DNA of 64,000 nucleotides from Alphaproteobacteria bacterium (GCA_028706255.1 JAQWBS010000005.1:35673-99672); one strand, 5' to 3'. Shown: positions 13,201 to 53,149, numbered from the stretch's first letter. Program-made: numbers and translations. Notes: generated by a model not told the origin, from the letters alone.

Positions 13201-13491
13201 AAAGAAGCAAAAGCTTTCGGAAATGTGTTGGGAATTTCGGCAAATGGTTATTATGATTATGACACAAGCCGTATAAAACTGGGAGGAATGCTTGCCCCTG
13301 CTTATAGTATCAATCGTTTTCTGGCAGGAATTCCACTGGTTGGAAGATTGCTTTCAGGAAAAGATGGCACAGTCTTTGCCGCGAGCTATCGTGTTTCTGG
13401 GGATGCGGAAAACCCTAAAATTAAAGTTGATCCACTTTCGGCAATTAGCCCTAATTCTATTAAAGAGATGTTTTCTAAAGATGAAAATTAA
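10294..13491 (+). CDS. AsmA-family / DUF3971 large envelope protein (AsmA_2 C-terminal domain)
   Basis: N-terminal TM; 1065 aa; C-terminal region (…GISANGYYDYD…GGMLAPAYSINRFLAGIPLVGRLLSGKDGTVFAASYRVSGDAENPKIKVDPLS…) matches the conserved tail of AsmA/YhdP-like proteins. Confidence 0.6.
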   Translation: MGMLNKKKYLARRITDYVGTAIFAFLLIFIWQLYRSPIPLPFLKPYIIKALNHDSQEYAVAVESVNLELVRSIQPIKIIAREVEYKNNKGSISINAPRIEISFSVRALIRGIISPSSVVFDSPSVSVFTNYGETDKSSEMSLNEKKIGYYFDTFNRFIERFNSQDLSYPESYINYIAIQNGDFEFHEVDLNRNWNFVKANYVFDRDREDINIGIDGNLMMGEEAVPLDFDLKYMPKVEKVDIDLAFSNFLPSKAVEAFISEQEQAAIYKVDVPINGKLDILVDFKKVLQNKNNISKSLDTAVEDFKFRFEGDDGKIAFSDNEAFNYDIKAFSLSGEVDSGLNEIKISDAQFDMGEKSTSLSLYISGFKNLLLKSSMKDLKITLKTEVEKMNFSELPRYWPRYIAEDAWIWVKEGIYEGEIKDAAFAFEFAYDAKQKGLAFKNLSGEGKVENASLNYLEGMPHAHKVFGKATFYNDKIDIKIDKGESVGNKLTDGRVILYDLDKYDNFIDIQLSATSSIPDALKLIDSPPLEFASEMGIKPDDISGKAEINLKLDFELKKTLTPEEVKVAVQSKLSDVTIKNIIKDKIIKGDRLDLSVNNKEMVVRGDVVIDELPMNLVWQKPFMNNKYLNKYELSFDLNTHMKKKLGFDFDILKAPYFIGDTKIKANVLEVKTNKFKVNFASDLLENEINYAFLGFLKEKGVVGSLNFSVDVENDKVKKINEIKLTKEDFEVEASMDLNKKGEIETIDITKVKGPKTSAKAKVMMSKVNGQELIKVNISGLSYDISNLFEINIKSNEKTDLDPEEYLKQMPNTDINIAVDSLWTNKEVPVTNFAGNMKIRNKIGIDEIKMVGNFAYVKDSNFRFEYLPREQGEHLINVTSSDAGKALKILRLYDYMNGGDLKISALKEKDGKIVGHAKIRSFNILNTSLLAKVVSMASLTGIINTLSGEGIAFSHLDVPFEFDGSVIEMKEAKAFGNVLGISANGYYDYDTSRIKLGGMLAPAYSINRFLAGIPLVGRLLSGKDGTVFAASYRVSGDAENPKIKVDPLSAISPNSIKEMFSKDEN

Positions 13492-13954
13492 AAGTCTTAA
13501 AATTGGACTGGATTTTCATGGAGTCATTAATGAGCATTATAAATTTTTTGAAGAATTTACGTCGCTTGCTTTAGCGAGAGGGCATAAAATTTTTGTCATT
13601 AGTGGAGGAAAAGGGGCTGTCTTGAAAAAAGAGTTGGCAGAGCACAACATTAAATATAGTGAGCTTTATTCTCTTTATGATTATTTTTCAGCATTAGGTT
13701 TGGTTGAAACGTTATCGGATGGCAGGTTTTATGTTGATGAAACTTTGTGGAACAAGCAAAAGGCAATTTATTGTTTGGAACAAAAAATTGATGTCCATAT
13801 TGATGATAGCATAGGATATTTACATAATTTTGAAACAGATTACTATCATTGCAATCCAGAGCAAAAGAAATGTTTTTGCTCTTGCCAAAAAGAAGTTCCA
13901 TTCTTTGTTAATCCGCACTTAGCCCTTCAGGAGATTGAAAAGACCTTTGGTTAA
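13481..13954 (+). CDS. Hypothetical protein (158 aa); start overlaps the stop of the AsmA-family gene
   Basis: ATG at 13481 overlaps the upstream stop (13489-13491); weak HAD-like LDFHGVI / VHIDDS motifs; the ORF-track extension to 13292 overlaps the previous gene and is rejected. Confidence 0.4.
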   Translation: MKIKSLKIGLDFHGVINEHYKFFEEFTSLALARGHKIFVISGGKGAVLKKELAEHNIKYSELYSLYDYFSALGLVETLSDGRFYVDETLWNKQKAIYCLEQKIDVHIDDSIGYLHNFETDYYHCNPEQKKCFCSCQKEVPFFVNPHLALQEIEKTFG

Positions 13955-13959
13955 TGACC

Positions 13960-14190
13960 TCAATCAAAGGTCTTTTTTGCATAATCACGATATGCTCTGA
14001 GCAATTTTTCAAGCTTAATTGGGTTGAGTTCTTTCTTCTTTAATTTTGCAATATCTTTCGTTTTATTCAGACAAACTGCATTGAGCCATTTTTTATCATA
14101 GCTTATGTTTTGTTGTAAAAAATTATATCTATTTTCAAGTTCGTTGAGGGTTTCTGAAGCTCCCTCAAGATAAATTTTATTGTTTCTCAT
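13960..14190 (-). CDS. Hypothetical 76-aa protein co-transcribed downstream of the phage repressor
   Basis: 3-nt gap from the repressor stop; charged, helical; no family recognised. Confidence 0.4.
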   Translation of the reverse strand: MRNNKIYLEGASETLNELENRYNFLQQNISYDKKWLNAVCLNKTKDIAKLKKKELNPIKLEKLLRAYRDYAKKTFD

Positions 14191-14193
14191 TTT

Positions 14194-14802
14194 TTACTGA
14201 CTTACCCATAAAATTCGATTGATTTCTTTGATTTTGCTAATTTCTAAGCTAATTTCTTTTTGTTTATCATTTAGCTCTATAATTTCGATTGTGCGAGCTG
14301 TTCTGCGAATAAATTCACCGATAAAAATGTTTCCATCAGAATATTTCACAAGGATTCGGTCTTTGCGTCTGGTTTCAGAATTTTGAGAGAGAATTAGAAT
14401 TGAGCCAATGTCATAAATGAGGGTTTCACAATCAATTTCTATGGCATAAAGCTTGTCTTTACTGTCTGGAAATTTGATTTTTTTTAGATAAGTCTTATCC
14501 TCTAAAAGCTCAGCATTTTCTTCAAGTTTTGAGAGCTCAACATAAGGAATATTGTGCGCTAAACTCTTGGGAGAAGATGTTTTTCCTAAGTTATAAAACT
14601 CTTCAAAACTGATGTGACAAGATTCGATAATTTTTTGAATACTATCTAAAGAAGGGAATCTTTTCTTTCCATCAGGTCTTGTTCTTTTGCTTTTATTGAA
14701 GGTTGTGGAGTCAAGCCCTGCTTTTTTTGCGAGTCCGGAAGCTGATAAACCATTTGCTTTGGCTAAGTTATCAACAGCGTCCCAAATTTTTTCGTGATTC
14801 AT
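14194..14802 (-). CDS. Phage CI/LexA-like repressor (N-terminal XRE HTH, C-terminal S24-like peptidase domain)
   Basis: HTH segment LSASGLAKKAGLDSTTFNKSKR; C-terminal β-rich domain with a LexA-like layout (…IGSILIL…LVKYSDG…); divergent to the + strand phage genes. Confidence 0.7.
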   Translation of the reverse strand: MNHEKIWDAVDNLAKANGLSASGLAKKAGLDSTTFNKSKRTRPDGKKRFPSLDSIQKIIESCHISFEEFYNLGKTSSPKSLAHNIPYVELSKLEENAELLEDKTYLKKIKFPDSKDKLYAIEIDCETLIYDIGSILILSQNSETRRKDRILVKYSDGNIFIGEFIRRTARTIEIIELNDKQKEISLEISKIKEINRILWVSQ

Positions 14803-14967: not shown

Positions 14968-15297
14968 ATGGGGAGAATGTATGAGCCTTTTGAGAATGCA
15001 GAAGAGGTTTGGTTCTGGTTTTGCAGTAGCCTTATCAGCCAAGAAGACGGTTGGCGTGCCATGGGTGATTATGGGGGAAAAGAACGTTGTTGCGAAATCA
15101 ATGATATCTATCGAATTATTAAGAGGTTGAAGCTTTGTCACGAAACATCTAATCGTCATTTAAGAGTTGCTCTGAAATGGGGTAAGGAACTGACACCGCC
15201 ATATTATGCTAAAAGAGCAAAGAGAAGCGAAGTGAGAATCTGGGGGGAATTTATCACGGCTTTAGAAACTGCTTTGAAGAAAAAAGGAATTATATGA
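14968..15297 (+). CDS. Hypothetical phage early protein (110 aa, Trp/Cys-rich)
   Basis: Good SD (AAGGAG) then ATG; first gene of the operon divergent from the repressor; no family recognised. Confidence 0.5.
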   Translation: MGRMYEPFENAEEVWFWFCSSLISQEDGWRAMGDYGGKERCCEINDIYRIIKRLKLCHETSNRHLRVALKWGKELTPPYYAKRAKRSEVRIWGEFITALETALKKKGII

Positions 15298-15704
15298 AAA
15301 TGAATAATGCTATAAGCCAAGAAATTTCAGAATATTATGTTGTGTTTATTGATGAAACAAGCCTGTGGTGGTTGAGGTTTTTGAAAAAAGGCTTTCGCCA
15401 TTGTTATTTGCTTTTTCAGATTGATGAGGGAATGACATGGGTTGAAGCGAATCCTATGTCTAATCGTTTTTTCTTTTGTACCTATTCGTTTTGTGAAAAA
15501 GTTGATTATATTGCGGAGCTTAAAAAACAAATGAACTGTGAAATAATTTTACAAAAAGTTGAAAATGTTGGTTTAAAAATCGCACCGCTTAGTTTTTTTT
15601 CTTGTGTGGAATTTGTCAAGAGAAGCTTGGGGATTCATAGCTTTTGGACAATCACACCTTATCAGTTGTATAAAAAATTAAAGATTGTAGGAAAAAAGTC
15701 TTGA
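15294..15704 (+). CDS. Hypothetical phage early protein (136 aa)
   Basis: Start overlaps the previous stop (ATGA), so the two are translationally coupled; no family recognised. Confidence 0.5.
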   Translation: MKMNNAISQEISEYYVVFIDETSLWWLRFLKKGFRHCYLLFQIDEGMTWVEANPMSNRFFFCTYSFCEKVDYIAELKKQMNCEIILQKVENVGLKIAPLSFFSCVEFVKRSLGIHSFWTITPYQLYKKLKIVGKKS

Positions 15705-15767
15705 CAAATGGTTTTTTATATGTTACACCCTTAATTGTCACTAGGGAGTAGTGTATCTAAAATTTAT

Positions 15768-15800
15768 AAAGCTCAGTTGTTTAACTGGGCTTTATTTTTT
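15768..15800 (+). terminator. Rho-independent terminator between the early genes and the tail genes
   Basis: AAAGCTCAGTT-GTTT-AACTGGGCTTT stem followed by ATTTTTTT. Confidence 0.5.
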
Positions 15801-15867
15801 TAGAAAAATGGTGAAGTGGTTTTTAGTCTTTCTTTTGGAAAGGCTATTTTTTTTATTTAGGTGTTTT

Positions 15868-16476
15868 ATGAGCGAGAAGAAAATTAAAACAATTAAGGCT
15901 TTGAAAACACGTTTGAAGAAAACTTTAAGTATTTGCTCTAAAGCTTTATTTAAGCTTGGAGTTGATGGCATTGTTTCCTTTGAAGAAGGAACAGCAGAGG
16001 CGGACATTTCCAACAATCTGTTTGGGTTAATCCGTGATGGGCTTCTTTCTTCATATCCTTGGAGTTTTGCCACTGCACAAAAAAGATTGCCACGCCTTTC
16101 TGAAAATCCGTTAGCAGACTATAAATATGCTTATCTGTTGCCAAACGATTATTTGCGAATGATATCCGCAGGTTCAGGCACAAGAGGGCTTGGGTTAGAG
16201 TATCGCATTCAGAAAAATATGCTACATACTAACGCAGAAGAGGTGGTAATTACTTATATTTTTCGTCCGAAAGAGGAAGATTTTCCTCCGTTTTTTTGCG
16301 ATGTTTTGACCACAAAATTGGCGTCAGAATTTTGTTTGCCGCTCACGGAAGATAATGCCAAAGCAAATATTTTAATTAAAAGGGCTGAAGAAGAAATTAA
16401 AAATGCTCGATTAATTGATTCTCAACAAGCAACCCCGAAAAAGTTTGAAGATTTTACCTTGGTTGAGGTGAGATGA
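15868..16476 (+). CDS. Podovirus tail tubular protein A (T7 gp11-like)
   Basis: Translation aligns by eye along its length with T7 gp11: W-[ST]-F block, DYL-x-[LM]-[MI]-S block, …FPPFFCDVLTTKLASEF… versus …MPECFRYWIVTKASRQF…, and an acidic EEE block. Confidence 0.6.
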   Translation: MSEKKIKTIKALKTRLKKTLSICSKALFKLGVDGIVSFEEGTAEADISNNLFGLIRDGLLSSYPWSFATAQKRLPRLSENPLADYKYAYLLPNDYLRMISAGSGTRGLGLEYRIQKNMLHTNAEEVVITYIFRPKEEDFPPFFCDVLTTKLASEFCLPLTEDNAKANILIKRAEEEIKNARLIDSQQATPKKFEDFTLVEVR

Positions 16477-18374
16477 TGGCGAATATGTTTTCAGTTAAAA
16501 CAAATTTCACAGCAGGGCAAGTTTCTGAAAAAATTTTTGGACGAGGAGATTTAGGGGTTTATGAAAATGGGGCAAGAACTTTGGAAAATGTCATCATTCA
16601 ACCAACAGGCGGTGTTTCAAGAAGAAAAGGCTTGAAATTAGTTGATGAAGTTGAGGCAAAAGCAAAGCTTATTCCATTTGAGTTTAACGTGAATCAGACT
16701 TATCTTTTGTGCTTGTTTAACAACAAAATGCGTGTTTATAAAGATGATATGTTGATTGCTGAAATTGCCACGCCTTGGGCAAATGACCAACTTAATCAAC
16801 TAAACTGGACACAAAGTGCGGATACGCTTTTGGTGGTTCATCCTGAAGTTGCACCTAAGAAAATTACCAGAAATCTTGATGAGGTTTGGAAGGTGGAAGA
16901 TTGGGAATATTACACAAAAGATGGCATGGTTTTCTGCCCTTATTATAACTTTTATCAAAACAGAAATAATTTGCAGTCAAGTGGCACAAGTGGAACAGTG
17001 ACCTTAACAGCAACGGAAGATGTTTTCAGCACAGGCTATGTGGGGGTAATGATAAAACTTGGAACAGGGCTGGTAAAGGTGACGGAATATCTCACCACAA
17101 AGACAGTGAAGGCTTTGGTTTTAAAAAATGTGACAACAACAAGCACAAATGAATGGGAAGAACAGTCTTTTTCACCACTCAGAGGTTATCCAAGGTCGAT
17201 TACTTTTCATCAAGACAGGCTTGTGATTGGTGGCTCTAAAGGCTTGCCCAATCGATTGTGGTTTTCTAAGTCGTCAGATTTATTTAATTTTGACTTAGGC
17301 ACAGGGCTTGATGATGAGGCAATTGAATTTGCCATTTTGTCAGACCAAATCAATGCTATCTGCAATCTCGTTTCCAGCCGTCATTTGCTGATTTTTACCA
17401 CAGGGGCAGAATGGATGTTGTCTGCGGAAACTTTAACGCCAACCAGCTTAGTCTTGAGTTGTCAAACCAATACGGGAAGTTATGGGAAGAATAATCTCTT
17501 ACCGCAACAGATTAATGGGGCGACAGTGTTTGTTTCTAAAAATGGCAAGCAATTGCAAGAGTTTTTATATACAGACACCGAACAGGCATATTTAAGCAAA
17601 GACTTAAATTTGTTGGCAGATAATATTTTACAACAACCGCTTTCAATTGCTTTTTCACAATATGAAAATGTGGTTTATTTGGTGTTGGAAGACGGCACGG
17701 TTTCGGCTTTAACAACTTATCGAACGGAAGAGGTTAATGCTTGGAGCAAGCTTAAAACTTCAGGAGAATTTGTTTCTGTTGCCGTTATTGGGGAAGAAAT
17801 TTATTTTGCTGTGGCAAGAGGAGAAAGATTCTTTATTGAAAGATTTAGCGACACTTTTTTTGCGGATTGTGCAGTTGAATTAACAAGTGAGGATAATCAA
17901 AGCCATTGGGAGGGATTAAGTGTTTACGAAGGGCAAGAGGTTTGTGTTTCCTCAAAGGGGTATAATCTTGGGAAATATATTGTTCAAGATGAGGCAATTG
18001 ACTTGTTTGAGGAAACATCAAAGATTTATGTCGGACTTCCATATGAACATCTGATTGAACCTATGCCTTATATGATGGAAAATATCAAACCAATGCCGGT
18101 TAAAGGACTGCGTGTGGTGAATGCTTTATTTAGATTAATCAACAGCAAGTCTTTTAGGCTTAGATTGGCAGATGAATATGTGACTATTCCTCTAAAGAGA
18201 ATGTATAAAGACCAAATTTTAGATGCTCCTGCAAATAATTTTTCCGGAGACATTAATGTGCGTTCTTTGAAGTGGCTCAGAGAGATGAACTTGCCCATGT
18301 GGAGCATTAAAAGTGATGAACCTGTGGCGTTTAATCTGCTTTTGGCAGCAATGGAAGTGAAAATTAAAATTTAA
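16473..18374 (+). CDS. Podovirus tail tubular protein B (T7 gp12-like)
   Basis: Start overlaps the gp11-like stop (ATGATGG); N-terminal GGVSRRKGLKL and PNRLWFSKSSDLFNF blocks resemble the T7 gp12 motifs GLQKRP and RNRLGF…FNFYP; position immediately after the gp11-like gene. Confidence 0.5.
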   Translation: MMANMFSVKTNFTAGQVSEKIFGRGDLGVYENGARTLENVIIQPTGGVSRRKGLKLVDEVEAKAKLIPFEFNVNQTYLLCLFNNKMRVYKDDMLIAEIATPWANDQLNQLNWTQSADTLLVVHPEVAPKKITRNLDEVWKVEDWEYYTKDGMVFCPYYNFYQNRNNLQSSGTSGTVTLTATEDVFSTGYVGVMIKLGTGLVKVTEYLTTKTVKALVLKNVTTTSTNEWEEQSFSPLRGYPRSITFHQDRLVIGGSKGLPNRLWFSKSSDLFNFDLGTGLDDEAIEFAILSDQINAICNLVSSRHLLIFTTGAEWMLSAETLTPTSLVLSCQTNTGSYGKNNLLPQQINGATVFVSKNGKQLQEFLYTDTEQAYLSKDLNLLADNILQQPLSIAFSQYENVVYLVLEDGTVSALTTYRTEEVNAWSKLKTSGEFVSVAVIGEEIYFAVARGERFFIERFSDTFFADCAVELTSEDNQSHWEGLSVYEGQEVCVSSKGYNLGKYIVQDEAIDLFEETSKIYVGLPYEHLIEPMPYMMENIKPMPVKGLRVVNALFRLINSKSFRLRLADEYVTIPLKRMYKDQILDAPANNFSGDINVRSLKWLREMNLPMWSIKSDEPVAFNLLLAAMEVKIKI

Positions 18375-18389: not shown

Positions 18390-18770
18390 ATGGGAGCAAC
18401 GGCTTTAACAGTAGCTGCTGTGGCAGCTTTTGCAAATCAAAAACATACTGAAAGAAAAACTAGAAGTGCAGAGTTGAAAAGTATACGAAGGCAACAGGCA
18501 ATTAATGAGGCGAAAAAGAAGAATATTTTAGAAGGACAATTGGCAGCAAGAAGAGCCAAAGTTGGAAGTTTAGGAATTTCAACTTCAGGGTCAAATGTTG
18601 CTGTTCAAAATAGATTGGTGGGAGATGCTCAGCGTGAAATTTCTTATGATAATTGGGGCTATCAGGATAAATATGCTCAAGTCTTTAATAATTATCAAGA
18701 CAAAATAAGGAGCGAAGCTATTGATTATGCCCCAAAAGTTTATAATTATGTTGAGAAAATGATAAAGTAG
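18390..18770 (+). CDS. Hypothetical phage protein (126 aa); an internal-virion-protein-like slot after tail tubular B
   Basis: Strong SD (AAGGAGGAAAATATG); positional analogy to T7 gene 13; no sequence family recognised. Confidence 0.45.
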   Translation: MGATALTVAAVAAFANQKHTERKTRSAELKSIRRQQAINEAKKKNILEGQLAARRAKVGSLGISTSGSNVAVQNRLVGDAQREISYDNWGYQDKYAQVFNNYQDKIRSEAIDYAPKVYNYVEKMIK

Positions 18771-18780
18771 GAGAATTGGA

Positions 18781-18975
18781 ATGCCACGAAAAAAAGAAAC
18801 TTATTTGGAAAAAAGAAAAAAAGCTTATCTGAAAGAAATTCCAATTGAAGAGCAATTAGATGCTATCTTAAAAGCTTTTGATATGGTTTTACAGGAAGAT
18901 GGCGTTTTGCCTTATGAACTAATTGATGTGATTGAAAAATGGCAGAAGATTAAGTTTAAATTTCCCAAAGAATGA
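18781..18975 (+). CDS. Hypothetical small protein (64 aa)
   Basis: SD GGAGAATTGGAATG; Lys-rich; no family recognised. Confidence 0.4.
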   Translation: MPRKKETYLEKRKKAYLKEIPIEEQLDAILKAFDMVLQEDGVLPYELIDVIEKWQKIKFKFPKE

Positions 18976-18985
18976 TGCAAAAAAA

Positions 18986-19013
18986 GTGACCCAAAGAGAA
19001 GTCTTTGGGTCAC
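18986..19013. terminator. Bidirectional hairpin terminator between convergent genes
   Basis: GTGACCCAAAG-AGAAGT-CTTTGGGTCAC, a perfect 11-bp stem; A-run on one side and T-rich run on the other, which gives a strong T-run for the minus-strand gene 19049-19294. Confidence 0.5.
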
Positions 19014-19048: not shown

Positions 19049-19294
19049 CTATTTTTTCTTATTTTTCTTTTCCAAGTCTTTCAAAATTTCAGGCTTATAA
19101 ATTTCGAGAATTTTATAAACACCAATTAATCCAACTAAAATATAGATTAAATTAACGATGAAACCTAAGCCAATAATATCAAACATATGATGTAAAATAT
19201 CAACATCAAGAAGTCCAAGAACGAGGTAATATGATGTGGCAAAGACGCAGATGAGGTTGCCAAATTTTTTAATGAGTTCAATAATTTTATCCAT
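19049..19294 (-). CDS. Small two-TM membrane protein with a highly charged C-terminus (holin-like)
   Basis: 81 aa; two hydrophobic helices; KDLEKKNKKK tail; convergent with the phage structural genes. Confidence 0.4.
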   Translation of the reverse strand: MDKIIELIKKFGNLICVFATSYYLVLGLLDVDILHHMFDIIGLGFIVNLIYILVGLIGVYKILEIYKPEILKDLEKKNKKK

Positions 19295-19404
19295 TTTCTA
19301 TCTCCGATGAGGAATTTTGAAATAATAACAGCTTTAATATTAAACAGTTTTTTATAATATTCAAGAATTTCCATGCAATTATTAATATTTGTGTGAAATT
19401 TTTA

Positions 19405-19915
19405 TCTCGGTCATTGCAATGTTTTTCTGTCATTGCGAGCGAAGTGTGAGATAATAGAACATTCTATCATCTTTGTCATTGCGAGCGAAGCGTGGCAATC
19501 CAATCAAAGCATGAATCCAAATAGCAATATCTCTCCATTCAGGTAGAGCCTCAGTCGAGATGACAGGAGTAAAGATAATCCCTAAAAAGCAATATCTCTC
19601 CGTTCGCTTCGCTCAGTCGAGATGACAGGGGCTTGAGAGGACATAAAAGAATTGTCATTTCGAAATTGACAACGTCAATGAGAAATCTTGCCTTATCGTC
19701 ATTCCATCACTTCCTTTATCATTTCCCATACTTCTCTGTCATTCCCAACGTCCTCCTCGTTGTCATTCCCGAGAAATCGGGAATCCACCTTTATGGATAT
19801 TCGGGTCAAGCCCGAATATGACAACTTAAAAATTAGCCCGAATATGACCCCTATGTATTGTCATTGCGAGCGAAGCGTGGCAATCCAATCAAAGAATGAA
19901 TCTGAATAGCAATTT
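19405..19915. repeat. Cluster of short palindromic repeats of the GTCATT family (GTCATTGCGAGCGAAG x3, GTCATTCCCGAGAAATCGGGAATCC hairpin, AGCAATATCTCTCC…TCAGTCGAGATGACAGG x2, ATATTCGGG-N5-CCCGAATAT)
   Basis: Repeated motifs visible in both orientations; 8-bp stem with GAAA loop at 19765-19784; no long ORF with sensible composition. Confidence 0.75.
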
Positions 19916-20101
19916 TTACATTTTTATTTTTTTACTGATTGACATCTTATTTTTTTAGTCTTACAATTCGATATATGGCGAATTGACGAATTGGATTTTA
20001 AAAGTTGATAAAATTGAGTTGGAGTTAAGGTTAGATTAGAAACAGAAATAAGATTAGATTAGAAAAACAGTAAGTTTATTAAATGTTGTAAGGAGGGGTA
20101 A

Positions 20102-31794: not shown

Positions 31795-33858
31795 TTGTTT
31801 TCATACTTAAGACTTTTCATTCACAAAACAAAAGAGATGTTTTTCGCTGAACAATCTCGTTGGTTTTTGTGGTCTCCTGTTTTATTTGGCATCGGGATCG
31901 GTGTTTATTTCACCTTGCCGTTTGAAGTTTCTAAGTGGATTGTTATAGCTGTTTTTGAGCTTTTTTTGCTCCTCTTTTATCTGTTTCGTCATCAGTCAAA
32001 TCGCCTTTTTATAACTTCATGTTTATTCTTAATTTTAATAGGTTATATCTCTGTTTATATGCAAGTTTTATATTTTTCAAAGTCGATTTATCCTGTGGAA
32101 GAAAAACGAGTTTATTTCAAAGGACGCATTGAAAATATTGATCATAATTATCGTGGCAAGCAACGAATTATTGTTGATGAATTGGTTGATTTTGATGAAA
32201 TGCCAATTAAAGGAAAATATCGCCTGACTTTGATGTCAAAATATCCTGAACTAAGAGACGGAGATTGCATCGAAACGGTTGCTGAAATTAGCCCACCGAC
32301 AAAACCTTTTCTGGTTGGAGGCTATATTCCCTCTGTGCAGACTTTTTTTGAAAAAATCAGTGGGGTTGGTTATGTGAGTGCTGGTGTTTTGCCTGTTGAA
32401 TGTTCGAAAAGCAATCGATTTATGGATTATCTGAATAATCAGCGAATTAAGATTGAACAGCACATTGCCAAGATTTTACCACCTAATGAGGCGGCTGTTG
32501 TGGCGGCAATTTCTGTTGGAAGCCGTGGAGGCATCACCAATAAGCTGAAAGATGATTATCGAGATTCGGGTTTGGCACATTTTCTTTCCATCTCTGGCGT
32601 GCATATGACGATGATTGCGGGGTTGACCTTCTTTTTTGTTCGGTTCTTAATAGCACTTATTCCATTTTTTGCCTTGAGGGTGGACGGGAAAAAGGTTTCC
32701 GCCATTTTAGCTTTGCTGATGAGTTTTATTTATTTGTTGATTTCAGGCATGGAAATTCCCGCCCAAAGAGCCTTTTTTATGACAACCATTGTCTTACTTG
32801 GGGTTTTGTTGGATAGGAATGCTATTTCTTTGCGTGTTCTAGCAGTGACAACGCTGATTATCTTAATTCTTTCACCTCAAGCTTTAGTTGGACCAAGTTT
32901 TCAAATGTCCTTTGCAGCAGTCATCGCTTTAATTGCCTTTTATGAAAAATATGGTGCTTCTGTTGGAAGATTTATCAGAGGAGAGAGCTATAAGCAAAAC
33001 AACCTATTAAGCAAATTGGTTAAAGTGTTGCTTGTCTATTTCTGCGGAATTATCCTCACAGACCTTGTCGCCAGCATAACAACTTCTGTTTATGCGGTTT
33101 ACCATTTTAACCGCTTAGCAATTTATACCAGCATTGGAAACAGCCTTTCAGGACCGATTATTGGCTTTGTGGTGATGCCTTTTTTGCTTTTCTCACTGAT
33201 TTTAATGCCGTTGGGGTTGGATAAAATTCCTCTTGAAATTTGTGGTTGGGGTGTTCAAAAGGTGAATGAAATCACGAGTTATGTGGCTGCTTTGCCAGAT
33301 TCCTCTGTTCTCATTCCTTCTTTTCCATTATGGGGATTGCTATTTCTCACGTTTGGAGGTTTATGGCTTTGCTTGTGGCAAAAACCATGGCGAAATTGGG
33401 GGTGGATAGGGATTTTTATCGGCTGTTGCAGTCTGTTCAGCGTTTCAAATCCAAGCTTAATCATTAATGAAGAAGCCAACACCATCGCCGTGCAAGCTGA
33501 AAATGGGGAAATGGTGGTTTTGCCTTCTCGTGGCAATTATGTTTTGAAAAAAGTTTGGCTGGAAAAAACGGCAAGCACGCCCTTAAAAGCCAAACAAAAG
33601 AAGCTGTTAAAAGAAATCTATCAAGGAAAAGCTGAAGATTTATCTTGGCTTAACCTAAAATGTTTTGAAACTTATTGTGATTATAAGGGGCGTATAAAAA
33701 TCTATAAAAACGGAAGATTATATGATATAAAGAAAAATGAATATTTCATCGTTTATAGTGGCGGTTCAGTTTGGATTGAAAAAGACCAATTGAAAATTAG
33801 AACAATGGATGAATATCTCGGCAAAAGAGCCTATATACAAAAGGAAGTTATTGAATAA
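31795..33858 (+). CDS. comEC: ComEC/Rec2-family membrane channel protein (competence domain; no metallo-β-lactamase domain)
   Basis: Multiple TM helices; …AHFLSISGVHMTMIAGL… signature of the competence domain. Confidence 0.7.
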   Translation: MFSYLRLFIHKTKEMFFAEQSRWFLWSPVLFGIGIGVYFTLPFEVSKWIVIAVFELFLLLFYLFRHQSNRLFITSCLFLILIGYISVYMQVLYFSKSIYPVEEKRVYFKGRIENIDHNYRGKQRIIVDELVDFDEMPIKGKYRLTLMSKYPELRDGDCIETVAEISPPTKPFLVGGYIPSVQTFFEKISGVGYVSAGVLPVECSKSNRFMDYLNNQRIKIEQHIAKILPPNEAAVVAAISVGSRGGITNKLKDDYRDSGLAHFLSISGVHMTMIAGLTFFFVRFLIALIPFFALRVDGKKVSAILALLMSFIYLLISGMEIPAQRAFFMTTIVLLGVLLDRNAISLRVLAVTTLIILILSPQALVGPSFQMSFAAVIALIAFYEKYGASVGRFIRGESYKQNNLLSKLVKVLLVYFCGIILTDLVASITTSVYAVYHFNRLAIYTSIGNSLSGPIIGFVVMPFLLFSLILMPLGLDKIPLEICGWGVQKVNEITSYVAALPDSSVLIPSFPLWGLLFLTFGGLWLCLWQKPWRNWGWIGIFIGCCSLFSVSNPSLIINEEANTIAVQAENGEMVVLPSRGNYVLKKVWLEKTASTPLKAKQKKLLKEIYQGKAEDLSWLNLKCFETYCDYKGRIKIYKNGRLYDIKKNEYFIVYSGGSVWIEKDQLKIRTMDEYLGKRAYIQKEVIE

Positions 33859-49022: not shown

Positions 49023-49129
49023 GGCAGATTTTTAGTGCCTCGCTAAGATAAAATTAAACATCTTGCTTTAGAATGTTGAAATGAATTTTATGGTTTGCAA
49101 AGCATATCTTGAAAATAAGGAATTTTTTG

Positions 49130-52100
49130 ATGTCAAAACAAGAACTTGATACACAAGCTTACGAAGAAGAGAGCGTCCTCGATGAAGCAACTTATGAAAG
49201 AGACTTTTCAGAAGAAAGACCTCGCAAAAGCAACATCAATGTTGACGTGCATGAAGGTTGGCTGACTAATAACCTTAATCGCTTGATGATTGGAATTAGT
49301 GTTTTTTGGTTTGCCTTTGTTTTGATTTATATTACCCAATTCTTTGGTTGGTCAAATCTGTTCTTGATGATGCCTGATGAATTTGGCGGTTTTCTTGCTG
49401 GGGTGACTTTGCCTTTGGCAATTATTTGGGTGGTGATGGCATATATTGACCGAGGTTCTAGTTTCAAAAATGAAGCGAAGTTTTTGAGAGCTTATATGAA
49501 CCAGTTGGTTTATCCTGAAGAAGGTAGCGCAAAAACAGCTAAAGCTATGGCGGATGCTATTCGTTCACAAGTGGTTGAACTTCAAGAAGTGACTAAAATT
49601 GCAACCAAACAAACAGATATCATTAAAAATGAACTTTCAAGCCGTGTTGACGACTTTGCCCGTTTGGTTTCTTTGCTTGATAATTATTCAGGTAAGTCAA
49701 TGAGAGAACTTGGCGAAACGGTTGAAACTTTAACGAAAAGTTTTGAATATGTGAGCGATAAAGCCATTGGAGCAACCGACGGGTTTAAAGACACAATTGC
49801 TGAATTTAATGTTTCAGCTAATCAGGTTCAAGATAACTTAAAGACCTTGATTTCTGTTGTTTCGCCACAATTAGATGATATGGAAAAATATGCAGCAAGA
49901 CTTCAAAACTTGAACATTGATAATGAAAACCGTATGGCAAAAGCGAATAATTTGCTTTCTGAATTTAGTGCAAAATCAAGCACCAATATGGAATATGTTG
50001 CTGACTTACTCACAAACCAATTGACGAAAATTGATGAATCTTCTTCAAAAGTGAGAGAAGAATATGGCTCAATTGAAAAAACGTTGGATAAGAGTTTGGA
50101 AAAAGTGGGCGATTTACTCACTTCACAAAGCAAATTTGTTTTGGAACATGTGGATATGCTTGGTAAGAAATCTGATGTGCTTTCAGGTAAATTCACTGAA
50201 CATGGCGAAAAAATCAGTCTTGAGATTGAAAAGATTATGTCTCGCACAAATTCTTTGGAAGAATCAATTGCAATCCAAGTGAGAGATTTAGACAGCGTTT
50301 CTAAACGAATTGAAGGTTCAATGCAAGAAGTTGAAGATTCCGTCAATTCACAAGTGGCTGTGCTTGAAGATAAATCAAAATATGCGATTGAAACAATTTC
50401 TTCTTTGGTTGAAAAACTTGAAGATGAAAATAATCGTATTGCCGAAGTAACGGATAAAAACATCGAAAGAGGCGAAAAAGTTTCTGCTGAAGTTGCAAAA
50501 AGAAATGACGTTTTGCATAATGTTTCAGAAGAAATTTTGACACATTTGAGAAGCTTAAGTCAAGAACTTGAAATGAACACCAACAACATCAGAATTCAGT
50601 CTGAAGATTCAATTGCCAAGTTTAATGACGTGAATAATAATCTGAAGAAAAACACAGAATCGCTCAATGAAACAACCTCAATCATTGTCACACAAAGCAA
50701 AATTGGTGAAACCTCTTTGGCACAACAGCAACGTCATATTGCTGATTCAATCAGCCGTCTGGACGCAACTAAGGGTGAACTTAAACGTCAAATTGATGAG
50801 CTCACTCGTGCGGCAACAATTGTGAACCAAGAAGCTGAAACTTCTCTTGCGAATGTTAAAAAACATCTTGAAGAAGTTATCTCTAGTTCTGAAGAAGTTG
50901 CCAAAAGAAGTCAAAAAATTCTTGAGAAAATGCAACACCAAGCAACCGAATTTGATGAAACATCGGATAGAGTTTTGGATAAAACAACCAAAGCAGGCGA
51001 AATTCTTGAAACTCAGAATAAGAAAATTGGTGAAACTTCTGAAAACATTCTTGAAAGAGCAAACGAAGTTAAGCGAATTATTGAAAAAGAAGCAGAAGTT
51101 ATTGATTCAACAACAACAAGTTCTGAAAAAACATATCAAAACATTCTCAATTCGTTTGAAAGTCAATCTGTTCTCATCAACTCTGTTGCTGAAAATACTG
51201 TCTCTTACGTTTCGGATGTGGTTCAAGCTTTGGATGAAAAAGCGGAAGCCATTAACTTGCTCTTTAAGCACCAAGAAAATGAATTTAAAGATATTTGTGA
51301 AAAAATCTCTGAAAACACAGGTAGTATTGGTTCTTCATTGAAACAAAACTTATCAACCATTGAACAAAGTGCAGACAGAGTCTTTTCTCGTATGGCACTT
51401 TTGGAAGAAGATGTCACCAAGCGTTCTGAAACAGTTATCTCTAGTTCAACGAGAACCATTGACCGCTTGGCAGAAGTGGATAATGCCATTGGCTTGAGAA
51501 ATAATGAAGTGAACGAATTTGTTAAATCTTCATCTGAAAAACTTGGTGAAATTGCTGAGAGCTTCAAAACAAATATTAGTGCTTTCTCAAACATTGTGAA
51601 AGAAGTTAAAGATGAGTCAAATGAAACAACCAACAACTTGCTAACAAATTTCAATAAGGTTAAGGAAGTTAACTCTAGTCTTGTCCAAGAAACGAAAAAC
51701 GTTTCAACAATTATTGACAATAATATCAAAAATATTGATGTGGCAATGATTAAAGCAAAAGCACAAGCAGACGCAATTAGAGAAACTTTTGAACAACAAA
51801 AAGAAAGCTTGAGCGACATTGTGAATGTGGTTTCAACGCAATCCAGATTAGGCGAGGCATCTCTCACACAGCAATATAAAATTTTGTCTGATGTTTCAAC
51901 AGATGTTGCTAAGAAGATGAATGAAATTAATGATAGTTTCAAAAAAGGCACAGATAAAGTCTTTGATACAACAGGTAAAGTGGCTTATGAAATTGATGTT
52001 CTGGGTGATAGATTGCTGAAAGTTGGCGAAGATGTTGCAAAGTCTTCAAAATCGACCATTAAAGATGTTGAACAAGTGAATATGGCCTTGTCACAATCTG

Positions 52101-53149
52101 CAGAAGACTTAATCCATACGGCAACAACGTCAAATAAGTCTATCTCTGATGTGATGAAAAACTACGAAACATATATTTCCAGATTTTCAACAGTCACTGC
52201 TGAAGCCAGCACCAGCGTTGTTGAAATTAGCGATTTAATCACTGAACAAAATGATAAAATGATTAAAATTAGTGAAGATACCAAACAACTGGTTGATTGT
52301 TTCAATGTGGTCTTGAACGACACATCATTACAACTTTCAAATCGTGCAAATTATGCTTACGACAAAGTGAAAGGTCTGGGCGAAAGCTTTAAAAACTTGA
52401 GTATGCAACTTGAAGAAACAACCAAACATAGTTCAAAACATTTGGAAAATTCAGGCGATAAATTACGTTCGTCAATTTCTGAAATTGCTGCAAATGCTGA
52501 AAGAATTTCAAATGAAATCAGAAATTCAGGCGAAGTGTTCTTGAAACAATCTGAAGTTTTGGTCGGAGCAACAGATGAAACCTTGAAAAAAGTTGAAAAT
52601 GTGATGAGTTTCTTGAATAAATCTTCAGGTGAATTTGTCAATAAGTCTGAAACAATTGTTCAAAAATCCGCAACGTTTAATGAGATGTTTGATAAGCAAA
52701 TCGCTCTTTTAGCATCAACTTCTAAGAAAGCAGATGAGAAGATTAAAGAGCTCAACAAGGGTTATGATGAAGTGGAACTTTCAAACTTCTTGAAATCTGC
52801 CGCTCATATTGTGGAACAGTTAGAAGCTGCTTCTGTGGACATTAACCGCATTTATAATCCTGATTCTGAAGAAGAACTTTGGAAGAAATATTATAACGGT
52901 GATAGTTCTGCTTTTGTTAGACATTTGGAAAAAACAATGACCAAAAAGCAAATCATCAACATCAAAAACTTATTTGAGAAAAATGTTGAGTTCAGAACTT
53001 TTGTCACACGTTACATTTCAGAATTTGAACATTTGTTGGATAAAGCTAAGAAGAGCGAAAACGCAAGCTTATTGCTTTCAGTGCTTTCAGGCTCTGACAT
53101 TGGAAAAATTTACTATATCTTGGCAAAATCTTTGGATAAAATAGATTAA
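49130..53149 (+). CDS. Giant (1339-aa) membrane-anchored coiled-coil protein: acidic N-tail, two TM helices, about 1150 aa of apolipoprotein-like heptad repeats, and a C-terminal globular domain
   Basis: TM segments LMIGISVFWFAFVLIYITQFF and FLAGVTLPLAIIWVVMAYI; long low-complexity E/K/S/T/N-rich helical repeats; stop overlaps the dusB start. Confidence 0.7.
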   Translation: MSKQELDTQAYEEESVLDEATYERDFSEERPRKSNINVDVHEGWLTNNLNRLMIGISVFWFAFVLIYITQFFGWSNLFLMMPDEFGGFLAGVTLPLAIIWVVMAYIDRGSSFKNEAKFLRAYMNQLVYPEEGSAKTAKAMADAIRSQVVELQEVTKIATKQTDIIKNELSSRVDDFARLVSLLDNYSGKSMRELGETVETLTKSFEYVSDKAIGATDGFKDTIAEFNVSANQVQDNLKTLISVVSPQLDDMEKYAARLQNLNIDNENRMAKANNLLSEFSAKSSTNMEYVADLLTNQLTKIDESSSKVREEYGSIEKTLDKSLEKVGDLLTSQSKFVLEHVDMLGKKSDVLSGKFTEHGEKISLEIEKIMSRTNSLEESIAIQVRDLDSVSKRIEGSMQEVEDSVNSQVAVLEDKSKYAIETISSLVEKLEDENNRIAEVTDKNIERGEKVSAEVAKRNDVLHNVSEEILTHLRSLSQELEMNTNNIRIQSEDSIAKFNDVNNNLKKNTESLNETTSIIVTQSKIGETSLAQQQRHIADSISRLDATKGELKRQIDELTRAATIVNQEAETSLANVKKHLEEVISSSEEVAKRSQKILEKMQHQATEFDETSDRVLDKTTKAGEILETQNKKIGETSENILERANEVKRIIEKEAEVIDSTTTSSEKTYQNILNSFESQSVLINSVAENTVSYVSDVVQALDEKAEAINLLFKHQENEFKDICEKISENTGSIGSSLKQNLSTIEQSADRVFSRMALLEEDVTKRSETVISSSTRTIDRLAEVDNAIGLRNNEVNEFVKSSSEKLGEIAESFKTNISAFSNIVKEVKDESNETTNNLLTNFNKVKEVNSSLVQETKNVSTIIDNNIKNIDVAMIKAKAQADAIRETFEQQKESLSDIVNVVSTQSRLGEASLTQQYKILSDVSTDVAKKMNEINDSFKKGTDKVFDTTGKVAYEIDVLGDRLLKVGEDVAKSSKSTIKDVEQVNMALSQSAEDLIHTATTSNKSISDVMKNYETYISRFSTVTAEASTSVVEISDLITEQNDKMIKISEDTKQLVDCFNVVLNDTSLQLSNRANYAYDKVKGLGESFKNLSMQLEETTKHSSKHLENSGDKLRSSISEIAANAERISNEIRNSGEVFLKQSEVLVGATDETLKKVENVMSFLNKSSGEFVNKSETIVQKSATFNEMFDKQIALLASTSKKADEKIKELNKGYDEVELSNFLKSAAHIVEQLEAASVDINRIYNPDSEEELWKKYYNGDSSAFVRHLEKTMTKKQIINIKNLFEKNVEFRTFVTRYISEFEHLLDKAKKSENASLLLSVLSGSDIGKIYYILAKSLDKID

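Follow-up and report, generated by a model that had tools for sequence, protein, structure and literature searches.

Adaptor and nozzle genes as the probable remnant of a podovirus-type late operon in an alphaproteobacterial chromosome

Podoviruses such as T7, Carin-1 and LME-1 carry short tails in which an adaptor and a nozzle follow the capsid in gene order. We analysed a homologous pair of genes, encoding a tail adaptor (gp11-like, tail tubular protein A) and a tail nozzle (gp12-like, tail tubular protein B), on a stretch of 64,000 nucleotides from an Alphaproteobacteria bacterium (GCA_028706255.1, JAQWBS010000005.1:35673-99672). This whole 64-kb stretch is referred to as the window, and positions are counted from its first nucleotide. 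The pair shows the same folds and the same order of capsid, adaptor and nozzle as the tails of the three phages, whereas its nozzle comprises 633 amino acids (aa) compared with approximately 790–830 aa in T7, Carin-1 and LME-1. Unlike T7-type gp11, the adaptor begins with a foreign N-terminus of 20 residues and has no portal to dock on in the window. Together with the small genes p126 and p64, the pair would represent the distal part of a late operon that belonged to a podovirus-derived chromosomal element of ~12 kb, and the copy in the window is likely to be a remnant that can no longer give rise to particles.

According to the nozzle sequence, the closest cultured phages (24–35% identity) are HTVC010P-type pelagiphages, MEP301, the Yersinia phages YeP4-6 and Vibrio podophages, for example vB_VibP_ZCVPP1. 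ZCVPP1 shares the order of a divergent repressor-like gene, a p136-like gene, portal, scaffold, capsid, adaptor and nozzle; its genome of 34.5 kb additionally encodes structural proteins of 967 and 835 aa and carries replication genes. True phages of this structural lineage have a size of 32–36 kb and possess replication genes and large internal virion proteins, whereas the element family to which the window belongs lacks both. Podophages of Gram-negative hosts require ejectosome proteins to span the periplasm (PMC11440229), and no ejectosome genes were found in the element family of 12–14 kb.

Gene transfer agents (GTAs), of which only a few types are known, offer a second comparison. Like RcGTA-type Rhodogtaviriformidae, BaGTA of Bartonella and FpGTA of Faecalibacterium, the family represents a small chromosomal cluster of head, tail and lysis genes at a fixed site that co-diverges with the host. 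RcGTA consists of HK97/siphovirus-like genes, whereas the family has a T7-like portal, a T7-type TerL, an adaptor and a nozzle. For BaGTA, a fixed site, co-divergence and host-like Ka and Ks served as genomic criteria (PMC3610622). BaGTA itself, with a portal of 620 aa, a TerL of 447 aa and a size of 20–25 kb, was set aside as parent family because these published gene sizes differ, the comparison being one of size and not of sequence (PMC3610622). No description of a podovirus-type GTA or of such an element in Alphaproteobacteria was found in open-access papers and bioRxiv; the PhiGT1 study of related prophages covers prophages of ~40 kb only. With cryptic or defective prophage remnants, finally, the window copy matches exactly, being a partial late operon after one deletion with its regulators attached. 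Unlike the usual prophage remnant, its parent was probably already domesticated and non-mobile and not a phage that had integrated recently.

Identity of the adaptor and nozzle genes

A reading made from the sequence alone (the sequence-only reading) had described two open reading frames (ORFs) within 15868-18374 as gp11- and gp12-like tail tubular genes coupled by an ATGA overlap. The coordinates and the 633 aa of the second product (16473-18374) proved correct, whereas the first product (15868-16476) has 202 and not 203 aa. Its frame on the plus strand is open from 15751, starts with an ATG at 15868 and ends at 16476. In the sequence GTGAGATGATGG at 16468-16479, the adaptor stop codon TGA (16474-16476) overlaps the nozzle ATG (16473-16475), which gives the ATGA coupling as described, and the motif blocks named for the adaptor (PWSF, DYLRMIS, TKLASEF and EEE) are present.

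Profile searches placed the homology of the two proteins to podovirus adaptors and nozzles far beyond chance, though not through Pfam. Pfam yielded no family at E<=0.1 for either protein, and none of the best 120 adaptor homologues carries a precomputed Pfam domain. Most homologues of the nozzle carry precomputed PF25675 (Phage_nozzle), often as a weak match, while the window nozzle itself has none. PHROGs and PDB profiles, on the other hand, matched both. The adaptor was assigned to phrog_394 ('tail protein', E=3e-47) and phrog_9239 ('tail tubular protein', 9e-18), the nozzle to phrog_376 (E=1e-140). Against PDB, the adaptor profile found the Carin-1 'connector' (8ck1_E, 3e-12) and LME-1 orf17 (9efk_T, 9e-10). 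The nozzle matched the Carin-1 'Tail Nozzle' (8ck1_A) with 5e-54 as single sequence and 6e-81 as profile, and its profile also matched LME-1 orf18 (9efk_M, 6e-48). In the LME-1 structure, orf17 is present in 12 and orf18 in six chains, which is the expected ring stoichiometry.

An AlphaFold (AF2) model of the adaptor (pLDDT 74.5) was matched by Foldseek to T7 gp11 (6r21_M, E=2e-6, TM 0.61) and also to 7box, 7ey7 and KP32 TTPA (5mu4). The nozzle model (pLDDT 65.9, good over residues 50-250 and 430-530) matched 8ck1_A (1e-29) and T7 gp12 (9jyz_P, 5e-14; 6r21_a, 4e-13). T7 gp11 and gp12 were recognized by fold alone (11–17% identity), and a direct sequence search of PDB missed both. By tblastn against GenBank phages, the nozzle matched genes of Methylophilales phage MEP301 (35% identity), of HTVC010P-type pelagiphages and of others that bear the annotation 'tail tubular protein B'. 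Nozzle homologues at E<=1e-20 comprise 2,760 protein clusters; the best 120 are almost all 624–639 aa long, most of them 632–634 aa. Matches were thus obtained at the level of both profiles and structures, and the two ORFs are true homologues of the podovirus adaptor and nozzle, as the sequence-only reading had stated.

Deletion junction and late-operon leader

The closest non-identical nozzle (P0002, 70% identity across all 633 aa) is encoded by locus L004, the adaptor of which is 81% identical to that of the window. L004 is syntenic with the window on both flanks. On the left, both share YhdP, a HAD-like gene, the 76-aa ORF, the repressor, p109 and p136 (named p135 in L004), and on the right a membrane ORF of 79 aa, ArsR, a P-type ATPase, a flavin reductase and rubredoxin. 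Between p135 and the adaptor, L004 carries portal, Bbp19-like protein, scaffold, capsid and p84. In locus L003, where the adaptor is 59% identical to that of the window, a 68-aa ORF and a repressor with helix-turn-helix (HTH) and S24-like domains, both on the minus strand, are followed by p109, p139, a TerS-like gene of 104 aa, TerL, p94, a SleB-type hydrolase, the holin-like p177, p65, a T7-type portal, a Bbp19-like gene, scaffold, capsid, p85, adaptor, nozzle, p122 and p64.

Comparison with these loci located the deletion to the codon. The TerS-like gene encodes 104–107 aa and precedes TerL in intact elements; its product starts with MKDKKIKTIKALKKRLKKTLPDK... in L004 and L003, to which the start of the window ORF, MSEKKIKTIKALKTRLKKTL, corresponds. 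After codon 20 of the TerS-like gene, the ORF resumes in frame at adaptor codon 7 (SICSKAL...), and the junction reads ..AAGAAAACTTTA/AGTATTTGC.., with the slash at the point of fusion. The ORF consists of the TerS-like N-terminus and the adaptor from residue 7 onwards, and therefore one deletion joined both genes. The deletion amounts to ~7.0 kb measured on L003 and ~5.1 kb relative to L004. Missing are the rest of the TerS-like gene, TerL, p94, the SleB-type hydrolase, the holin-like p177, p65, portal, Bbp19-like gene, scaffold, major capsid protein, p85 and adaptor codons 1–6.

The ancestral operon would have consisted of a leader with late promoter and terminators, the TerS-like gene, TerL, lysis genes, portal, scaffold, capsid, adaptor, nozzle and two small genes. 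A single deletion of ~7 kb fusing TerS-like codon 20 to adaptor codon 7 would have removed its packaging, lysis and head genes together. What is left would be unable to build a particle, because a gp11-type adaptor ring assembles on the portal and the portal is gone. In accordance with this deletion, tblastn of the TerL, portal, scaffold and capsid proteins of the family against all 64 kb gave nothing below E=0.1. The ten largest downstream ORFs encode housekeeping or envelope proteins, save one of 1346 aa, so that the absence of a head or packaging partner, already noticed from the sequence alone, was borne out within the window.

The fused adaptor is peculiar to the window lineage. Other adaptor homologues (n=436) mostly have 188–190 aa, align from about residue 15 on and lack the graft, and among them a 202-aa adaptor is confined to this lineage. 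Two contigs (sources ncbi, lgn and nr; the longest 101.5 kb) carry the identical fusion protein of 202 aa, and GCA_043955425.1 shows the same gene arrangement as the window. The sole close relatives of the window lineage are 100% identical, and the next one is 70–81% identical with saturated synonymous divergence (dS).

The 164 bp between p136 and the fusion ORF correspond to the late leader of the element family. A predicted late promoter consists of a -35 hexamer TTGACA (15701-15706) overlapping the p136 stop codon, a spacer of 17 nucleotides and a -10-like TACACC (15724-15729). It is followed by a conserved motif TGTCAC...AGTG at about 15735-15753 and by two hairpins with T runs resembling intrinsic terminators (15766-15795 and 15824-15846). 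Every locus of the gut clade, the subgroup of the family that includes the window, has the same promoter hexamers and a terminator hairpin that differs by compensatory changes. The layout is also present in Acetobacteraceae and thereby spans gut bacteria of 36% GC and high-GC Acetobacteraceae. Equivalents of the window leader are located at L003 2262-2398, L171 5690-5870 and L172 5720-5900; related environmental loci have 58–63% GC.

As in the pR'/tR' region of lambda, a promoter is immediately followed by a terminator. This arrangement suggests that read-through is licensed by p109 or p136; judged by position and leader architecture, one of the two may control the late genes by antitermination. 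Every complete element carries p109 immediately behind the divergent repressor; this gene has no match in Pfam, PHROGs or PDB and no phage homologue. For p136 these three databases likewise gave no match, while homologues with 24–28% identity occur in 49 Vibrio podophages of ~32–34 kb, so that p136 goes back to the phage ancestor and was not added by the host. In ZCVPP1, the one gene map examined, the homologue (L174 5148-5657) is located just upstream of the portal.

Orthologues of the window repressor match PF00717 (Peptidase_S24). In alignment A7, Acetobacteraceae show GDSM or GESM and AKEL where the window has EIDCETL and IGEF; the catalytic Ser and Lys of S24 are thus present in Acetobacteraceae but missing from every copy of the gut clade, that of the window among them. 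RecA-stimulated self-cleavage of the repressor therefore probably no longer serves to induce the elements of this clade. The remnant retains repressor, early genes and a late promoter followed by terminators, and hence is probably transcriptionally quiet most of the time and cheap to carry, which would help to explain its persistence.

Intact relatives and their inheritance

A scan of species-representative genomes revealed three uncultured alphaproteobacterial contigs of metagenome-assembled genomes (MAGs) with nozzles 57–59% identical to that of the window. The metagenome scan gave 453 confirmed loci, and at least 533 were obtained from IMG/VR. A gene-content table over 170 loci showed two arrangements, one of the gut clade and one of an environmental clade, whose members were recovered in marine, soil and sediment samples as well as in many isolate genomes. 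The gut-clade module of ~12 kb is colinear and complete in ~20 loci, with three deletion derivatives as exceptions. Its block of TerS, TerL and lysis genes is located before the portal (L001-L036), whereas it follows the tail genes in the environmental clade (L037-L170). Environmental members carry behind the nozzle a tail fibre or spike gene of 378–780 aa with a T7-fibre N-terminal domain and pectate-lyase-like repeats. None of the gut-clade loci has a tail fibre gene; four metagenomic loci linked to lysK (L038, L048, L066 and L069) also lack one, and nearly all other members outside the gut clade possess it. The TerL of L003 (499 aa) matched the NCBIfam model termin_lrg_T7 (NF033889) with 1e-124, and one gut-clade holin-like protein weakly matched PF11351 (GTA_holin_3TM).

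Among cultured bacteria, the family is found in Acetobacteraceae. Homologues of the nozzle of L143, an environmental-clade provirus from Teichococcus aestuarii, are 68–100% identical, have 624–627 aa and occur in Roseomonas, Teichococcus, Belnapia, Neoroseomonas, Craurococcus, Paracraurococcus, Siccirubricoccus and Roseicella; a Teichococcus nozzle used as query gave 3,227 protein clusters at E<=1e-30. The element has a size of ~14 kb in Roseomonas marmotae, Belnapia rosea and Neoroseomonas oryzicola, within a family range of 12–14 kb. A chromosomal cluster of head, tail, packaging and lysis genes is present in L003, L007-L010 and L171-L173. All genes between the host flanks are accounted for, and no match to an integrase, recombinase, primase or polymerase was obtained in any context examined, where small ORFs without assigned function remain. 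Of the integrase, att sites, replication module and full virion set with ejectosome that mark intact temperate prophages, the family has none, whereas related true phages possess them. Nor does it look like a phage satellite of the PICI or cf-PICI kind: it has no integrase or replication initiator, and it encodes its own adaptor and nozzle and, outside the gut clade, a fibre.

Several observations point to vertical inheritance. In Acetobacteraceae, the element is flanked by lysK-mprF on the left and by DUF952-EamA-pyrD-HAD on the right, each flank being common to two of the three genera Roseomonas, Belnapia and Neoroseomonas. In six metagenomic loci, the repressor is likewise preceded by a class-I LysRS gene, which directly adjoins it in the three that were checked (L088, L069 and L048). 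Across eight lysK-linked loci, the pairwise identities of portal, capsid, TerL and nozzle correlate with those of LysRS (Pearson 0.87–0.94), and the absolute values are similar (LysRS 52–95%, portal 55–98%). In the gut clade, the identities of YhdP and nozzle run in parallel (63 versus 70%, 55 versus 55.5% and 53 versus 51%).

The ratio of non-synonymous to synonymous divergence (dN/dS) of element genes is 0.03–0.15, like that of flanking genes, which indicates strong purifying selection, and in two close pairs the dS of the element equals that of flanking host genes. A third pair of MAGs (L003 4207-9330 versus L001 82-5207) behaved differently: the head half has a dS of 0.05–0.2, whereas nozzle, p64 and flanking host genes have 0.6–1.2. 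The lower value suggests that the head module was recently recombined or exchanged between strains. The intact family thus combines a gene cluster, the lack of integration and replication functions, and a fixed site with co-divergence and purifying selection, as GTAs do. We favour the interpretation of a domesticated, GTA-like element that is passed on vertically and would form particles with a T7-like head and a short tail.

Fate of the remnant and its surroundings

The window is not the only derivative of this kind. L004 has undergone its own deletion, in which TerL residues 1-301 were fused in frame to the C-terminus of p65 with loss of the TerL nuclease half and the lysis genes. A third, independent and head-less derivative is L027 from human gut (1.4x coverage; 5389-5874 and 5871-7772), where the final 57 adaptor residues continue the frame of a Dtd-like N-terminus and are followed by an intact nozzle of 633 aa. 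Window, L004 and L027 represent a natural deletion series that shows how such elements decay. The lysis cassette was removed in all three, which fits selection against lethal induction. Loss of the cassette would itself be favoured because induction no longer kills the cell, and the remnant would have stayed intact either since the deletion is recent or since nothing selects against it.

The sequence-only reading had found the retention of a tail tube without a head puzzling. The puzzle mostly dissolves because the pair is what an operon kept at its distal end after losing its proximal part; what remains puzzling is the pattern of in-frame fusions. All three deletions keep translation running toward the nozzle (chance 1/27, calculated post hoc with n=3), which could mean that selection keeps the nozzle translated. 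This weighs against a functionless remnant, as do three further points. The seven remaining element ORFs that were compared contain no frameshifts or stops and hence show no decay. A Tajima-type relative-rate test of adaptor, nozzle, p126 and p64 revealed no acceleration in the window lineage relative to L004, a weak test because L004 is itself damaged. The absence of head genes, finally, applies to the visible 64 kb, and head genes may be present elsewhere in the genome.

These points lend themselves to other explanations, all of which we consider less convincing for the window than a particle-incompetent remnant. Adaptor, nozzle, p126 and p64 might have been kept by selection for a new task once the head genes were gone, for example to form a ring on the cell surface or in the periplasm, to block a receptor or to prevent superinfection, which comes close to the outer-membrane nozzle or adhesin that the sequence-only reading had offered beside a remnant. 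The intactness of these four genes and of the three regulators, the lack of rate acceleration, the complete nozzle of L027 and the three in-frame deletions would all be compatible with such a task. However, neither adaptor nor nozzle has a signal peptide or a hydrophobic or membrane segment according to a sequence check, and neither matched secretion or defence families in Pfam and PADLOC. No export route is evident, the neighbouring genes being the element's own regulators, and the pair is still located behind two terminators. The retention of the nozzle is moreover an ascertainment effect, because the loci were found with the nozzle as query; the fusion is confined to one lineage, and L027 has a coverage of 1.4x. 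We therefore regard a new function as quite unlikely, and of the two earlier readings the remnant is the one that the mapped deletion supports. A defence system was also considered and dropped, as PADLOC gave nothing but noise-level E2 matches over 40 residues of the nozzle.

It is very unlikely, in our view, that the tail genes work in trans with head and packaging genes elsewhere, either of a second copy or of loci scattered like those of RcGTA over the chromosome of Rhodobacter capsulatus, even though only 64 kb are visible and late promoter and regulators are kept. Head and tail are contiguous in every one of ~100 related loci with enough flank, protein searches revealed neither a second nozzle nor a second adaptor exceeding 82% identity to that of the window, and the adaptor N-terminus is altered. 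Furthermore, the TerS-like gene was disrupted by the fusion, a trait that marks a deletion and not a translocation. A mis-joined metagenome assembly, conceivable for a MAG and in view of the very low coverage of the related head-less contig L027, is hardly credible: the identical 202-aa fusion is present on two contigs, one of them of 101.5 kb, the arrangement recurs in GCA_043955425.1, and the junction yields a clean in-frame ORF.

For the family as a whole, we tentatively put forward the possibility that the T7-like cluster of 12–14 kb, vertically inherited at fixed sites by lysK or yhdP, acts as a GTA in Acetobacteraceae (Roseomonas, Teichococcus, Belnapia), Magnetovibrio, uncultured gut Alphaproteobacteria and marine groups. 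Two points weigh against it. The family is known here from its genes alone, and it retains a phage-type HTH-S24 repressor and two early genes of its own, whereas classical GTAs are controlled by host regulators. As the particle would lack an ejectosome, its DNA may get no further than the periplasm and then depend on the competence channel of the recipient, just as recipients of RcGTA need competence homologues for DNA entry; a comEC gene is present in the window. Alternatively, the intact elements could be mobile satellites or site-specific defective prophages, with replication, integration and ejectosome proteins supplied by a helper podophage of ~33 kb. ZCVPP1 (34.5 kb) and other true phages of this structural lineage do carry these missing functions, the repressor is of phage type and looks cleavable in Acetobacteraceae, IMG/VR calls many of the elements proviruses, and one close pair has mosaic dS inside the element. 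Nevertheless, no integrase, excisionase, primase or replication-initiator gene was found in any context examined, the same site is occupied across genera, and co-divergence with the adjacent LysRS extends down to ~52–60% identity. In addition, known satellites borrow structural proteins and do not encode a near-complete virion. Dependence on a helper is thus unlikely. The GTA idea is directly testable because cultured Acetobacteraceae carry the family with a repressor that still looks cleavable.

Locally, the pair is an ordinary deletion remnant, and its value lies in pointing to a widespread and apparently undescribed podovirus-type domesticated element. The family is abundant, with nozzle protein clusters on the scale of thousands and hundreds of metagenomic and IMG/VR loci, and it shows the genomic hallmarks by which BaGTA- and RcGTA-like elements are recognized, yet it is built of T7-like parts.

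The features of the element in the window are compiled in Table 1.

Table 1. Parts of the podovirus-derived element and its edges in the window.
Feature	Position	Strand	Basis
HAD-like gene, 157 aa, left edge of element	13481-13954		
Small ORF, 76 aa, downstream of repressor on same strand; conserved left-end member in gut clade	13960..14190	-	61% identical to L004 counterpart
Repressor-like protein, 202 aa, N-terminal HTH and LexA/CI-type S24 domain	14194..14802	-	phrog_4 transcriptional repressor, E=3e-5
p109, conserved early gene, candidate late-gene activator/antiterminator	14968..15297	+	alignment A6
p136, conserved early gene, invariant GFRHC...C-V...LG...TP, candidate late-gene regulator	15294..15704	+	alignment A5
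Late-operon leader	15701..15854	+	sequence, promoter/terminator scan
First 20 codons (MSEKKIKTIKALKTRLKKTL) of TerS-like gene, now 5' end of fusion ORF	15868..15927	+	85% identical to L004 4299-4358
Deletion junction	15927..15928	.	synteny with L004 and L003, DNA alignment
Tail adaptor (gp11-like, tail tubular protein A), residues 7-189 of ancestral protein	15928..16476	+	PHROGs, PDB, structure matches
Tail nozzle (gp12-like, tail tubular protein B), 633 aa, full length	16473..18374	+	PHROGs, PDB, structure matches
p126, conserved post-nozzle gene, hydrophobic N-terminus	18390..18770	+	homologous to L003 p122 (E=1e-15)
p64, last gene of gut-clade module, highly conserved	18781..18975	+	86% identical to L004, 73% to L003
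Strong hairpin with flanking T run closing late operon	18986..19013	.	terminator scan: 12-bp stem, 6 GC pairs
Two-helix membrane ORF, 81 aa, right edge	19049-19294	-	

Equivalents of the 76-aa ORF have 68–85 aa in L003, L007, L008 and L009, and the window ORF matched no family in Pfam, PHROGs and PADLOC. p126, which weakly matches a post-nozzle gene of 146 aa in Acetobacteraceae (E=1e-3), is probably a virion or tail accessory protein; p64 has no family match. The HAD-like gene at the left edge is common to the window, L003, L004, L008, L011, L012, L031 and L091, and the window, L004 and L007 have a membrane ORF of the 81-aa type at their right edge. Between the latter and arsR, approximately 800 bp (19295-20101) contain no called gene; their sole RNA match, FtrB, is below threshold (34 bits compared with a gathering score of 66). 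An Rfam scan of 13-21 kb found nothing near the threshold of any family. There are no tRNA genes in the window and therefore no att site of the tRNA type.

The ten largest downstream ORFs (24-63 kb) encode ProRS, LeuA, ComEC, a PpiD-like protein, PyrG, an autotransporter, ParC, HflX, AccC and the 1346-aa protein. The sole hit of the last ORF (49109-53149), an ATG17-like match below threshold, is probably due to coiled coil. The gene for the ComEC competence channel (31795-33858; PF03772, 8e-57) is located 13 kb from the remnant.

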